From NCBI GenBank assembly GCA_964016885.1, contig CAXHJY010001673.1:62001-126000 (forward strand): a DNA stretch of 64,000 bases, in the 5' to 3' direction. The DNA is from Eledone cirrhosa. Its lineage: Eukaryota. The notes under the pieces are model-generated. The model searched no databases, was not told where the DNA came from, and worked only from the letters and a program-made list of their open reading frames with translations. This document shows positions 2,558 through 62,515 of this stretch, in pieces. The position numbers were made by a program, and so were the translations under genes. The first letter of the stretch is position 1. Each line of letters starts with the position of its first letter.

Positions 2558-2780
2558 TAACGAACGAAATATGGTAAGGAACCAGGTGGACCATAACGCA
2601 CCAAAGTACTCAATACTTGGGGTAGTAGAGTGGGTAATAGGAACCAGTAAGACCCCGACGGCTGAGCTCAAGCCGTTTCGACGGCTAATTCTGGACGGAG
2701 TCCAACATTAGTCCAGACGGAGTCCAGAATTAGCCGTCGAAACGGCTTGAGCTCAGCCGTCGGGGTCTTACTGGTTCCTA
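2558..2780. mobile_element. (TA)n-embedded fold-back element, family A, with 3' half of a hammerhead
   Basis: Arms 2638-2696 and 2722-2780; gacgg..ccgtc-GAAA-cggc-ttgagctca-gccg-TC^-ggggtc at 2716-2767; ~15 related copies in window. Confidence 0.85.
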
Positions 2781-2800
2781 TATATATATATATATATATA

Positions 2801-3390
2801 TAAAACATGAGAAGAAAGAAGAATACTGCGTGGTTGCACATGGGTTACATATGATAAAAATAGTCCTTCGTCAGTGATTTGCCAACCATCATTGATATTT
2901 CATCGCATTAAAAATCATATACCTCAGGTTGGTGCGAGCAATAACTAAATAAAGCTATTGGGACAAGTAAATCGCGTAAAGCGAGTGAGACAAGTAAGCA
3001 ACATAGAAGGATGAAAGCAACGCAAGGATGGGAATAAACAAGCAACATGGTTATCTGGTCAGCATAATCTGGGTAGATTTCATGAGCGATCGTGATACAG
3101 ACCGTCCGACGTGAGTGAGATGTGAGCAAGAAGAGAACCCACTACAAGCCAAACAGGAGGAAGTGAGAAGGGGAGAAACAGAGTGTGAGTGAGTGGAAGT
3201 GCGAGGAAGAGGTTAGGCGAGAGAAAGTGTAACTGACAGAGGGGGCGAAAGAAGGTGAGAGCAACAGAGAGAACGGGGAAGCAGTAAGAGAGAAACAGAC
3301 AAACGTAGCCGAGGTAAATATATATTAAAAACATGAGAAGAAAGAAGAATACTGCGTGGTTGCACATGGGTTACATATGATAAAAAAAAA
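2801..3390 (-). mobile_element. (TA)n-embedded element with ~60-bp direct repeat (pLTR-like), family H
   Basis: aaaacatgagaagaaagaagaatactgcgtggttgcacatgggttacatatgataaaaa at ~2802 and ~3328; reverse complement of 2801-2906 aligns with 60955-61050. Confidence 0.65.
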
Positions 3391-3746
3391 AATATATATA
3401 TATATATACATATAATATATACCTTATTACGTAGGGTGCGGTTGGCATGTATTTATGAAACAGTGATAATGTAATATGTTATGATATTTCCTCATCATCC
3501 CCTCACCACCACCCTCCCCCTGGAGTCTCTACTGTACACCCCCTCCTGACACCACTCCCCACCCATCACCGTTGCATGGATAGGTAAAAATTGATGAATG
3601 ATATCAAGTATGTACTGGGAGTTTGCTGGCTGGCTGGCTAGATTGTTAGATGGTTGGTTGCTTTTGTTTCGTTTCGTTTGTATTTTGTTTTACATGTTTC
3701 TATCTTTCTATCTATCTATCTATCTATCTATCTATCTATCTATCTA

Positions 3747-3972
3747 TGATAACATTTTACACATTTTTATTGTATGTAAACTTCCCCCTTTGTATTTGTC
3801 TCCTTCTTTTGTGCCCCTGTGGCTAATAAAGAAACATATCTATCTATCTATCTATCTATCTATCTATCTATCTATCTATCTATCAATCTATATACCCTTT
3901 TTACTCGATTATATGTAAACTCCCCCTTTGTATTTGTCCCTTCTTTTTATGCCTTTATGGTAAATAAAGAAA
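3747..3972 (+). mobile_element. Two extra 3'-end fragments of the Tx1-like LINE inside (TATC)n
   Basis: tgtaaact(t)cccctttgtatttgtc..aataaagaaa followed by (TATC)n at 3747-3837 and 3895-3972; same as the 4525-4617 tail. Confidence 0.8.
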
Positions 3973-3997
3973 TCTATCTATCTATCAATCTATCTAT

Positions 3998-4617
3998 GTG
4001 CACGCATTCATACACTGCCCGGGCGTCACTGACCTGTGGGGCTATGTAGAACGACTATTGTCGCGGGTGGGACCAATCCAGTTGACCACCGAGTCCATTG
4101 TCATGATCAAACCGCCACCCTCCTTCAAAAACGAAGGCGAGGCGGTTTTCCTTTGTGTGATAGCTATGGCGAAAGAGGTTGTATGGTGGACAAGGTTAAA
4201 AGGGCTGAAGTCAGACACTTTTCTCTCCGGCCAACAACTGATTCTTTTTTTCAAATACCACTTTGGAAGAAGAATCAGGATGGAGAGAGAGGTGCTGTAC
4301 CCCAGCAAGTTTTATGAAAGGTGGGTGAAAGTGGCGAGAATGGCCCAAGTGAATGGGCCTTCTCTCTATATCAGCCTGTAGGTTGAGGAAAAGGAGAAGA
4401 AAGGAGTACAAAATCTTCGTACTCCTGGAGAAGAGGGTTGCACATTTTTTCGGGGGTATGTGTTACCCATATGAACTGTCTCCCCATATTGGGGAAAATC
4501 AACTAATTTTTTAAATTGCATTTGTGATAACATTTTATACGTTTTTATTGTATGTAAACTTACCCCCTTTGTATTTGTCCCCTTCTTTTGTGCCCCTGTG
4601 GCTAATAAAGAAACATA
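3998..4617 (+). mobile_element. 5'-truncated Tx1/L1-clade non-LTR retrotransposon (ORF2 C-terminus plus 3'UTR)
   Basis: ORF 3998-4381 HAFIHCPGVTDLWGYVERLL..AKEVVWWTR matches the end of the CCHC knuckle and the following LW / K..W..R pattern of L1/Tx1 ORF2; AATAAA then (TATC)n. Confidence 0.75.
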
Positions 4618-58977: not shown

Positions 58978-60890
58978 TATATAGTTATAGAGGTATTTAT
59001 TTACGCTTTAATTTATATTTTTAATTATCGTGTCTATAGTCTGCCTCTCATAGGTTATAGATTCCATGCACTGGTGGTTTTTCCCCTGTATTATTGATAA
59101 CGCACTGTATACACGTATCTCTCTCTGGTGTGTTACCTTTTCAACATATTGTATATATATATATATATATATATATATATATATATGTGTGTGTGTGTGT
59201 GTGTGTGTATGTGTGTGTGGGTGTTTGTGTGGGTGTTTGTGTGTGTGTGTACTGTAATGTACGAACGCAAGTACAGAGCACTCAATACATTGTGAATAGA
59301 TTATAAGTGTATGTGTTTGCATGTATGTGTATATATATATATATATATATATATATATATATATATATATATATATATATATATATATATATATATATAC
59401 ATATATATATATATATATATATACATACATATATATATATATATATATATATATATATATATATATATATATAGGAAAAGAGTCAGGACCCCGACGGCTG
59501 AGCTCCGGCCGTTTCGGCAGATAGTTCCTTACAACACTACACTTCCTTCGATATATATATATATATATCTGTGTGTGTGTGTGTGTGCGTGTGCGTGTGT
59601 GTGCGTGTGTGTGTGTGTGTGTGTGTGTGTGTGTGTGTGTGTGTGTGTGTGTGTGTGTGTGTGTGTGTGTGCGTGCGTGCGTGTGTGTGTGTGTGTGTGT
59701 GTGTGCGTGCGTGCGTGCGTGTGCGTGTGTGTGTGTGTTTATGTGTGTGTGCTTAACGAGAAAAAAACCATATTTCCACCAACGTTAGTTGAACAAAATT
59801 GTCACCACTGAAACAAACAACAGCAAGCGTGGTCTTCATGTGAAAAATAATAACATGAATTTGAAGTCAATTTCCTCGGCTTAATTGATTGATATCTTAC
59901 TTACAACACTGACTGGGCCGGGCTGACATCCCCCTCCTTCTCCTACACGTCTTTTCTAAATGAAATATGTATCATCCTTGGAGTTAGAGGGAGACAGCAG
60001 CCTATGGGTATAGTTTTTGTTTAGCTCAGGATAGATCAGAAGATAGCTTGATAAATAGATATAGATAGATAAATAGAGAGGGTATGGAAAGATATTGAGA
60101 GAGTTAACTGATGATAGAATCAGACCACAGAGATAGAGAGAGAAGAAAAAAACATTGCGATATTTCAAGCAATTGGGAGTCTGACTCGTTATCCTAGTTT
60201 TCTTCATTCAACACTGTGTCATTTCATCACACGTATGCAATTTGTCATTTCGTATCCGTCAAACAGTCCACAGTGAACTCAATATTCTATTTATGTCCGA
60301 TATATTTAACTTGGTTAACTACTTAACACATTTCTGTCATGTTGTATATAGACTAATTCCTATCTCTCAACACCTTGGCGTTTAACTTGTCTGACCTGAC
60401 AAGTGGGCTATACTGTATAGCTACAGTATTGAGTCTACAGGGAATGTAAAATGTAGATGCAGTCACTTCACTCACAGCTCAACACATATTTTACTCACTG
60501 AATCAAAGTAGGCACTGAAAGTGAAAGGTTTGATTTGGTTCGGGAAGAAGAATTTGTTTTCATTGAATTACGTATATAACTTATGTATGTATATACGTGT
60601 ATACATCTATCTCCCCCCCCCCCCTCTCTCTCTCTCTCTCTCTCTCTCTATATATATATATATATATATATATATATATATATATATATATATATATATA
60701 TATATATATATATATACATATATACATACACACACACACGCACACATATATATATCTCATATTTTTGTAATGATATATGTGTGTGTGTGTGTGTGTGTAT
60801 TCATATATATATATATTTATATATATGTGTATATATATATAAATATATTTATCAGTCTCTATCTTTCTCTCTGTCTATATATATATATAT

Positions 60891-61050
60891 ATATGAATAA
60901 AGTTAATCCTTCATCAGTGATCTTCCAACCATCATTGGTATTTCATCGCTTAAAGCGATGAAATACCAATGATGGTTGGAAGATCACTGATGAAGGACTA
61001 ACTTTATTCATATGTAGCCCATTAGCAACCACGCAGCACGTTTATTCTCA
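60891..61050 (+). mobile_element. Family H fold-back element
   Basis: Palindrome 60891-61013 centred on cgct-taa-agcg; homologous to 2801-2906 (-). Confidence 0.8.
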
Positions 61051-61905
61051 TATATATATATATATACACACATAAATACACCACACACATACATACATGC
61101 ATATACACACACATACACATACACATACATATATACACATATATATTTAATTATATATATATATATATATATATATATATATATATATATATATATATAT
61201 ATATATATATATATATATATATAGTAGAATAATCGAGTATCGAAAAATCGGCGCACGAGTTCACGATAAACAAAATTCGAGATGAGCGGCAGATATACGC
61301 AGGGCAAGGAAATACTTGATTTTGGTGTCCCAGTGCATATAGCTGACTCAGGCGTGTGAAACCCCTGGTCTTTGATATTAGGACATAATTCTAGGAGAAG
61401 GGTAACAAATATAAAACTTGCAACTAGATGCCAACTAATGACTTTGACTTGAACTGATCTTCCTTCGTTTTGGACACCGTTCACCCTTGTTCAGGAATGA
61501 ACCAGTGCAAGGCTTTCTTCATTTAAACAACTATATATATGGATGCTGGCCGACCGCCGCAACTTCTATTTTACTAACTCCACTATTATATATATATATA
61601 TATATATATATATATATATATATATATATATATATATATATATATATATATATATGTATGTATGTGTATATGTATGTGTATGTATATGTATACACATATA
61701 TATGTGTGTGTGTGTGTGTATATGTGTGTGTGTATGTATGTGTGTATGTATATATATATATGTGTATGCATATGATTGTGTGTGTGTGTGTGTGTGTTTG
61801 CATGTGTGTTTATTTTTCCTTTCCTTCTTCCTTTTCCAGCCTCACTTTCATATAGATTATATTTTTGATTTTTAAAATCCAATACCAATAAATACACCAG
61901 GATTT

Positions 61906-61966
61906 TTTCATTCTGATGATTGAAAGCAAAATTTGTTTGCTTTTAAGAAAGCACTGGTAAATGAAA
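61906..61966 (+). ncRNA. Hammerhead ribozyme (family D)
   Basis: tttcatt-CTGATGA-ttgaaagcaaa-atttg-tttgcttttaa-GAAA-gcactgg-TA^-aatgaaa; one stem III mismatch. Confidence 0.75.
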
Positions 61967-62293
61967 TAATTGCCTTATGTTGTTTATTACATAACTATAT
62001 ATATATATATATATATAACAGATTAAAGTTTAAGCAAAGAAAAGCTTTCACTCTTAACAGAATCTTTTGAAACTAAAATAATCAATCTGAGAACGCAGAA
62101 GTAAATATTTCAAAAAACGTTGCAACCAGAGGAAGACAGAAAGACGATACTTTGGTTCGTGGAAACGTTCTCTGGCAAAGAACGGATAAAGACAATATAT
62201 ATATATATATATATATATATATATATATATAAAACTTTTAAGCTTGTTGAATCCCAACAAATTAAAAATAACCTCTGCATATATATATATATA

Positions 62294-62515
62294 TAACGAA
62301 GGAAATGTGGTAATGAACCAGGTGGACCATAACACACCAAAGTACTCAATACTTAGGGTAGTAGAGTGGGTACGAGTAGGACGAATAGGACTCCGACGGC
62401 TGAGCTCAAGCCGTTTCGACGGCTAATTCTAGACAGAATTAGCCGTCGAATTAGCCGTCCAGAATTAGCCGTCGAAACGGCTTGACCTCAGCCGTCGGGG
62501 TCCTACTCGTTCCTA
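62294..62515. mobile_element. Family A fold-back with triplicated gaattagccgtc at the junction
   Basis: Direct inspection; (TA)n flanks. Confidence 0.85.

Follow-up and report, generated by a model that had tools for sequence, protein, structure and literature searches.

Short two-armed insertions of a Hydra-clade Penelope-like element in Eledone cirrhosa as a probable record of twin priming and of RNA 5' ends

Penelope-like elements (PLEs) leave inverted, one-tailed insertions whose origin is a stated open question, as is the cutting of PLE hammerhead ribozymes in vivo, in three reports (PMC8557442, PMC4209133, PMC11167929). For Poseidon_Ac, published work places the tail between two internal start sites and describes both target strands as nicked and extended in vitro (PMC11167929). 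Within the PLEs, the Hydra clade is recognised by RWK, by DKT in place of DKG, by a CxCx5C linker and by CxxC and CxH around E/N, with no CCHH (PMC8557442). Here we describe a repeat family of Eledone cirrhosa, noticed in a window of 64,000 nucleotides (GenBank assembly GCA_964016885.1, contig CAXHJY010001673.1, positions 62,001 to 126,000, forward strand). Judged from sequence, its copies derive from a 3,531-bp PLE of the Hydra clade and are short insertions with two arms in (TA)n tracts. Probably both cut strands of the target prime on one RNA at two UAU sites, and the two complementary DNAs (cDNAs) run off the 5' end of that RNA, which would be a start in loop II of the hammerhead or, less often, the ribozyme cut. 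Neither the clade nor the inverted anatomy nor initiation at two sites is new; what this family offers is the known insertion anatomy resolved finely enough to read template ends.

Positions on the arms are counted from the predicted hammerhead cut between GUC and GGGG, the first G being +1. Genome-wide figures are whole exact-match counts in the 3.0-Gb genome and are lower bounds, and tallies of the first 100 arms, like those made by eye, are hand counts from listed rows. Arm pairing, arm 5' ends (157 arms) and junctions (59) were scored on 91 long ends picked in their order on contig C1, with 18 of the 91 rows set by hand.

The parent element was reached through 318 copies that read through the long end into an open reading frame (ORF), and through tandem arrays of 3,531-bp units that differ by 1 nt, each with an intact ORF of 717 amino acids (locus L342). 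It is laid out as an ORF (+191 to +2344), a 3' untranslated region (UTR) of 1,187 nt, the hammerhead motif and an 80-nt tail. The model of the 717-residue protein is of high confidence (pLDDT 91) and its best fold matches are telomerase reverse transcriptases; it contains a VIYQ..YIGLT motif, and the Pfam GIY-YIG domain matches weakly in 9 of 41 aligned relatives. The protein and its pieces had no match in Pfam or NCBIfam, and a PDB sequence search with it gave nothing below E 0.1. A single ORF whose reverse transcriptase (RT) is telomerase-like, with an endonuclease (EN) of GIY-YIG type at the C-terminus, is found, as in EN+ PLEs, together with their tandem pseudo-long terminal repeats (pLTRs), inverted 5'-truncated copies and one-sided tail, the tail being 80 nt instead of 30-40. 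The protein (P0016) carries RLRWR, SDKTGNLY, CNCPDRSIC and CNLC..E..N..CKH, lacks CCHH, and has RWR in place of RWK; compared by eye with published Hydra sequences, it is colinear with Hydra-1_Obim. By these motifs and this by-eye alignment, the parent is a new and young family of the Hydra clade.

It resembles Hydra-1_Obim (Craig et al. 2021, PMC8557442) in its single RT-EN ORF, clade motifs, (TA)n target and hammerhead near the 3' end. It differs from the listed members, mostly under 3 kb, in its length of 3.53 kb with a 1.2-kb 3' UTR, and its hammerhead combines U3-A8 or C3·A8 with some 40 nt in loop II and 5-6 bp in stem III, whereas all Hydra motifs of File S2 of that paper have CUGANGA and short loops. 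CUGANGA is reported for all Hydra-clade members, descriptively and not as a defining feature; here a variant hammerhead stands in its place. The parent is not the Hydra-1_Obim family. A retrozyme without long terminal repeats was rejected, the parent encoding a protein and the short copies having no 5' core, and so was a miniature inverted-repeat transposable element (MITE) or other DNA transposon with terminal inverted repeats: the two ends are unlike (long and short), the interior and the arm lengths vary, and the parent is an RT element. This genome has over 20,000 repeats of hairpin shape that could be taken for MITEs or short interspersed nuclear elements in annotation and would be PLE run-off products.

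Head-to-tail arrays of at least three complete 3.53-kb units occur at loci L341-L343 and L346 (for example, C1:437200000-437209999). All ORFs are intact in the L342 units, and in L343 and L346 the same break is common to the units, which suggests repeated copying of one unit-length or circular RNA. The intact, very young element (tandem units that differ at 1 of 3,531 nt) offers material for an in vitro test. One element copy has its 3' end about 750 bases from a fragment of 28S ribosomal RNA at L055:1-703, on the minus strand (Rfam LSU, 109 bits).

Two 3' ends of the insertions are fixed. Genome-wide, 22,019 exact short ends (+17, then TA) and 24,571 exact long ends (+97) were found, against none for the reversed controls, so that fixed ends are not due to chance. 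Both sit on UAU, matching the (TA)n target. The original prediction had spoken of two preferred TA-like template sites; the two UAU sites agree with it, but likeness to TA does not by itself choose the site, since a decoy at +61 with the same CGTTAT context has only 52 ends, and UAU is thus not sufficient. What the two sites also share is a bulged hairpin, RCTC-stem-loop-stem-NN-GAGY-ACT, at +26 and +104, each site lying 3-5 nt ahead of one; the second hairpin copy follows the long site in full-length elements, and a likeness of the first was seen by eye in published Hydra consensus sequences. Unrelated repeats with the same bulged hairpin on other stems (GCTC-stem-loop-stem-NN-GAGC-ACT) lie near (TA)n ends at L004:1936, L272:451, L294, L065, L008 and L011. 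An inverted partner accompanies 66 of the 91 long ends (63 short, 1 long, 2 unresolved), with none within reach at the other 25. Both ends of the target thus carry an element 3' end, as had been proposed; the data support twin priming from two fixed UAU sites, in keeping with the published in vitro work. A point on the other side is that Frangieh et al. saw no homology at the priming site.

The anatomy is that of PLE copies and of Poseidon_Ac, as three papers describe them (PMC8557442, PMC3846280, PMC11167929): an inverted arm, a one-sided tail, two start sites bounding the tail, extension of both target strands and an A/T-rich target. Unlike what is given there, the tail here is 80 nt and not an optional 30-40 bp, both sites are a UAU that matches the target, each precedes a bulged hairpin, the main product is a run-off of 100-250 bp, and marks of the template 5' end are available on a genome scale.

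The two arms of a copy appear to come from one RNA. A subfamily mark is the same on both arms in 39 of 40 cases (the fraction expected by chance being 0.36), and a second mark in 35 of 36. Moreover, both arms stop at +1 at 206 loci at least, where about 22 would be expected if the arms were independent, an excess of about ninefold; that expectation rests on 5 of 157 arms at +1 or +2, and its upper bound, calculated by hand, is near 117, which weakens the comparison. Twin priming on two RNAs, both transcribed from a single source locus and bound by a dimeric enzyme, would account for the arms overlapping by about 55 nt in most copies, for which one RNA would need to be copied twice with strand displacement. 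It would also suit the similar rates at which long and short arms drop out from -32 to +20, the discordant subfamily marks at one junction of the arm sample and two of the near-cut set, and the predicted dimer of the Poseidon protein (PMC11167929). Yet the stops at the cut site are strongly common to both arms, and partners are long plus short in 63 of 64 resolved cases and not a random mix; we regard the two-RNA alternative as rather unlikely.

Priming of the same RNA by the second target end, and an inversion junction end-joined with or without microhomology, are features of twin priming by L1 (PMC11702581). There, in contrast, the arms are adjacent and nearly non-overlapping and the second site is variable, whereas in the present family neither site varies, overlap of the arms is usual and insertions normally have two arms (66 of 91).

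Upstream of the priming sites, long copies carry ACCCC-YTGAKAAG followed by stem II with its loop of about 40 nt, then GAAA, stem III, GUC and GGGGT. This is the layout of a type I hammerhead, with three helices around the core, GAAA and an NUH site, and self-cleavage is predicted. Longer copies had been expected to contain cccc-CTGANGA; taken literally this has four matches, but 3,010 arms do carry ACCCC-YTGAKAAG together with its partner in stem I. The core is YUGANAA, a U3-A8 variant, and never the canonical form (3,010 YUGAKAA against 4 CUGANGA matches). Helix positions are paired in 92% of 304 cells, with one compensatory pair between subfamilies, against 15-50% in slid controls, and stem II is 98% paired over 16 copies. 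Among the first 100 arms, about 61 have U3-A8 and about 39 C3·A8. The U3-A8 pair is found in most subfamilies and in the intact element, and one lineage has no Watson-Crick 3-8 pair: C3·A8 occurs in groups marked CCTACT and CATACT, and the CTTACT group has U3-A8 except for one copy seen. U3-A8 in the sister subfamilies ruled out the idea that the core had lost position 7 and gained an A. A 3-8 core mismatch impairs hammerhead cleavage, a statement based on C3G and G8C data (PMC11167929), and a literature search for measured activity of a C3·A8 core gave nothing usable. Two results speak against a hammerhead here: Rfam gave no hammerhead match in the window or in five whole-motif loci, and minimum-energy folds neither yield one nor have significant z-scores.

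A U3-A8 hammerhead is known from the Cercyon PLEs of Schistosoma (Cervera and de la Pena 2014, PMC4209133), which resemble the present motif in this pair and in the type I layout, the pLTR, a palindromic loop III and G10.1-C11.1. The long loop II with a likely transcription start, the extended stem III and the large unpaired C3·A8 sub-lineage set our family apart from them.

End points placed at random over the genome had been named as an outcome that would refute the original prediction, and the 5' ends are clustered: 96 of 157 arms end at -46 to -33, and 14 of 157 pass -47. Genome-wide, 25,936 arms cover -38 to -19 and 4,609 cover -48 to -19. The zone where arms stop is loop II, at the initiator-like motif TYAGTY, beyond stem III and the stem II 3' strand. 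A purine precedes A(-41) in 3,644 arms, and in the first 100 listed it is G in 88. In the sister subfamily A2, a purine stands there in 512 arms, with G in 76 of the first 100 listed. The control at -40 has G in 16 of the first 100 listed, among 4,638 arms. In a sample selected on the 3' end, together with the window, nine G and one A precede A(-41), and in a pure (TA)n context G is present in 6 of 8 cases at -41 against 2 of 19 at -40 and -37 (55 loci, 10 of them uninformative). The G is on both arms at 274 loci, and of 30 read-through copies joined to a short arm, five begin at -35 to -44. Capped full-length L1 inserts carry an extra G at their 5' end (PMC11702581), and Penelope has an internal promoter in its pLTR (PMC2377424). 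The untemplated G before A(-41), at an initiator-like site, points to a capped RNA 5' end.

Several observations weigh against this assignment. The control at -37 (G in 12 of 100) is confounded by a subfamily with a templated A there; only about 7 of 16 inspected G cases are unambiguous, the rest possibly deriving from the other arm; and a few ends at +1 also have an extra G, so that its addition is not exclusive to -41. Furthermore, most arms end 1-6 nt short of -41 or seem to pass it by 1-4 nt, and trimming and A-tailing must therefore be assumed. A second start at A(-45) is unnecessary, the ends there being explained by microhomology or tailing. At L129, L188 and L270, the junction beside -44 bears 13-18 T in a row (A on the other arm), a sign of A-tailing or of stuttering where the template ends. 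At L127 and L171, short arms lack the whole stem III region between two 7-nt repeat copies, as if the enzyme had skipped the hairpin.

A minor class of arms ends at the predicted cut. Of 55 one-armed loci ending near it, 21 end at +1 and four are ambiguous, with no other position exceeding seven. Both arms end near the cut at 461 loci (control 31), and 27 of the first 49 such junctions have both arms at +1, mostly with A/T between. Among 10,990 CTTACT short ends there are 170 exact double stops, and among 11,029 CCTACT short ends there are 36, which makes them 4.7-fold rarer in the CCTACT group (odds ratio 0.21, p 2e-22). As the CCTACT group, which holds the C3·A8 lineage, and the CTTACT group have the same stem III, this difference favours cleavage over a pause. 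Counting against it, the U3-lineage marker is present in only 1 of 15 CCTACT double-cut copies, so that loss of activity in the C3·A8 lineage is not demonstrated, and Frangieh et al. saw no RNA ends at their hammerhead cut. The linkage of a marker to split U3 and C3 lineages among short copies was too weak.

The original prediction had the RT stalling in the ribozyme structure. Were the template to extend upstream and the RT to stall in the folded ribozyme, mostly at stem II and for the +1 class at the foot of stem III, one would understand why ends spread over about 12 nt and not one base, and why +1 adjoins stem III, a plausible pause; the 98% pairing of stem II would suit it too. Stalling is nevertheless unsupported as the main stop, because arms pass stem III and the stem II 3' strand and end in the A/U-rich loop II with a cap-like G, at one position in two subfamilies. 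Nor does it fit the excess of double stops at +1 or the difference between groups with the same stem III, and we consider it improbable. It is just as improbable that -41 is a true template end but uncapped, either a splice acceptor (TTTAG/TCC) behind a short exon whose last letters are GAG, or else a processed end that receives a C from the enzyme. The same letters would also suit a 3' splice site, a 5' intron is known in Penelope elements (PMC2377424), and some +1 ends also carry the extra G. However, what precedes the G is either flank or one A or T, with no constant exon, on which ground an origin of the G from a spliced exon or spliced leader was rejected, and the added bases are mostly A/T at +1 and G then A/T at -41.

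A run-off on one RNA may thus be pictured as follows. Both cut target strands would prime reverse transcription at the two fixed UAU sites, the hairpins positioning the enzyme, and both cDNAs would run off the RNA 5' end, likely a capped start in loop II and less often the ribozyme cut. If the mRNA starts at A(-41) in the 5' pLTR, its 5' hammerhead copy is without the catalytic core. Priming at this 5' copy would yield most of the copies, as run-off cDNAs about 60 and 140 nt long; priming at the 3' copy would give the approximately one in five arms that pass -48, up to full length; and self-cleaved 3' products would give the arms ending at +1. Before end-joining, the two cDNA ends would be trimmed and tailed, and about a third of the joints would involve microhomology. 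We hold it an even chance that the broader proposal is right as well: that tens of thousands of insertions form a fossil map of RNA 5' ends, that the loop II promoter leaves the 5' ribozyme dead while the 3' copy cuts in vivo, that one RNA primes both strands, and that the lineage with the broken core pair lost most cleavage and kept transposing. If true, it would provide the first footprint of hammerhead cleavage by a PLE in vivo, along with a natural mutant control and an intact young element. The predictions are precise to the base: the RNA should be capped at -41 and cut at +1, C3·A8 should cut less well, priming should fall 3-5 nt ahead of each hairpin, and both arms should come from one RNA. 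In a literature search, from which most subscription papers were out of reach, neither cap-G nor cut-site run-off marks were described in PLE insertions.

In the window, the twelve copies listed in the original prediction, out of the roughly 15 it claimed, were all verified in position and ends, and about six unlisted copies or fragments are added (at 17855, 33002, 44433, 44563, 52100 and 53424). Long ends read ..CCACATTTCCTYCGT and then TA(TA)n, and inverted short ends ..GTTCC and then TA(TA)n, 17-20 nt 3' of GUC. The main features are these.

2558 to 2781: two-armed copy; long arm 2558-2696 on the minus strand (-40 to +99), a junction insert, short arm 2721-2781 on the plus strand (-41 to +20).
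2720: untemplated G before A(-41) in the short arm of copy 2558 to 2781.
13791 to 13935: two-armed copy; long arm (minus) to about -4, short arm (plus) -28 to +20, with a 6-nt overlap at the joint.
28022 to 28142: two-armed copy with no common template stretch; long arm (minus) +37 to +99, short arm (plus) -43 to +19, 4-nt overlap.
33002 to 33087, plus strand: one-armed copy, unlisted before; +14 to +99, ending in (TA)n.
39593 to 39798: two-armed copy; short arm 39593-39656 (minus) -44 to +20, long arm 39660-39798 (plus) -40 to +99.
39672 to 39704, plus strand: 3' half of the type I hammerhead in this long arm, with the stem II 3' strand, GAAA at 39677-39680 and stem III.
Between 39699 and 39700, plus strand: predicted cut, followed by the stem I 3' strand GGGGT.
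39717 to 39719, plus strand: UAU of the short priming site (+18 to +20).
39725 to 39752, plus strand: first bulged hairpin, ACTC-TACT-loop-AGTA-TT-GAGT-ACTT (+26 to +53), directly 3' of the short priming site.
44433 to 44636: two older, diverged copies of sister subfamilies, 79-87% identity.
45991 to 46180: two-armed copy of sister subfamily A2.
51886 to 52081: two-armed copy; short arm (minus) -44 to +20, long arm (plus) -34 to +99.
52100 to 52232: two-armed A2-type copy whose short arm extends deepest into loop II.
53424 to 53643: tail fragment (53424-53484) and two-armed A2-type copy (53501-53643).
57885 to 57982: two-armed copy, arms without overlap (-19 to +20 and +40 to +98).
58407 to 58538: two-armed copy, arms without overlap (-41 to +20 and +26 to +99), 3-nt overlap at the joint.
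58551 to 58670: two-armed copy, both arms ending at the predicted cut (+1) with one extra G each.
59471 to 59550: A2-type copy, short arm (minus) -35 to +20 joined to a degraded tail end.
62294 to 62516: two-armed copy, both arms reaching -40, with short templated repeats at the junction.

No window copy has the 5' half of the hammerhead core, as had been noted. The longest copy does not end at stem II, as was claimed: the longest arms in the window cross stem II and end at -40 to -44 in loop II. The 'gacgg' of copy 2558, taken for a stem II strand, is a junction product (GGAC plus an untemplated G), and the true stem II 5' strand, G-CT-CGGCTA, lies about 45 nt farther upstream. Junctions do vary, being unlike in each window copy, but genome-wide they cluster at -46 to -33, with the minor class at +1.

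Joining by microhomology, another part of the proposed mechanism, holds for a fraction of the junctions. Of the 59 scored, 18 have 2 nt or more, ten have 1 nt, ten are blunt and 21 carry untemplated inserts; microhomology is enriched, with 18 of 38 insert-free junctions against 14% in simulation. Empty sites gave one clear case among the fetched loci: at L124 (C1:2506422-2509442), a copy lies within a tandem repeat whose neighbouring empty unit is 97% identical, with (TA)17 in the empty unit and (TA)52 plus (TA)36 in the filled one. In 112 two-armed copies, selected for TA at the short end, the tracts have a median of 12-13 TA units per side. On the one case of L124, (TA)n may lengthen during insertion or later, perhaps through slippage on the UAU template. 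Contigs of public runs (one study, possibly the same sample) contained no empty allele.

Self-priming or fold-back on one strand, which Arkhipova et al. (2013, PMC3846280) propose for Penelope palindromes on an antisense template, would explain the common head-to-head palindromic junctions and arms that are nearly always of one subfamily. It cannot produce insertions without a common template stretch, which are 6 of 66 in the sample as well as window copies 28022, 57886 and 58408, and it is thereby largely refuted. The short arm reaches farther 5' than the long arm in 31 of 66, and the same untemplated G is possible on both arms; fold-back is very improbable, and this family argues against the published antisense self-priming model. 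No more credible are later deletions at cruciform centres or assembly artefacts as the source of the junction positions: palindromes are unstable, and deletion between short repeats would fit 9 of the 49 near-cut junctions, but 21 of 59 junctions have untemplated inserts, some arms do not overlap, flanks are unique on both sides, and the same kinds of joint occur in the contigs of the public runs. With priming of both strands on one RNA retained as the probable origin, the copies do record the integration mechanism, as originally proposed.

The window also contains other repeats. Those at 1928-1975 and 2290-2370, both on the plus strand, are flanked by (TA)n, have canonical-looking cores (CTGAAGA or CTGATGA ... 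GAAA) and probably represent more PLE or retrozyme families. Another repeat family is found at 2802-2910 and 60895-61006; the latter is a perfect hairpin of about 110 nt, with a below-threshold Rfam score as MIR4387, and is probably another two-armed insertion. Finally, at 31738-32292 on the minus strand lies a reading-frame fragment with ENDQVKVLWDF, a sequence typical of R4/Dong-type non-LTR elements.

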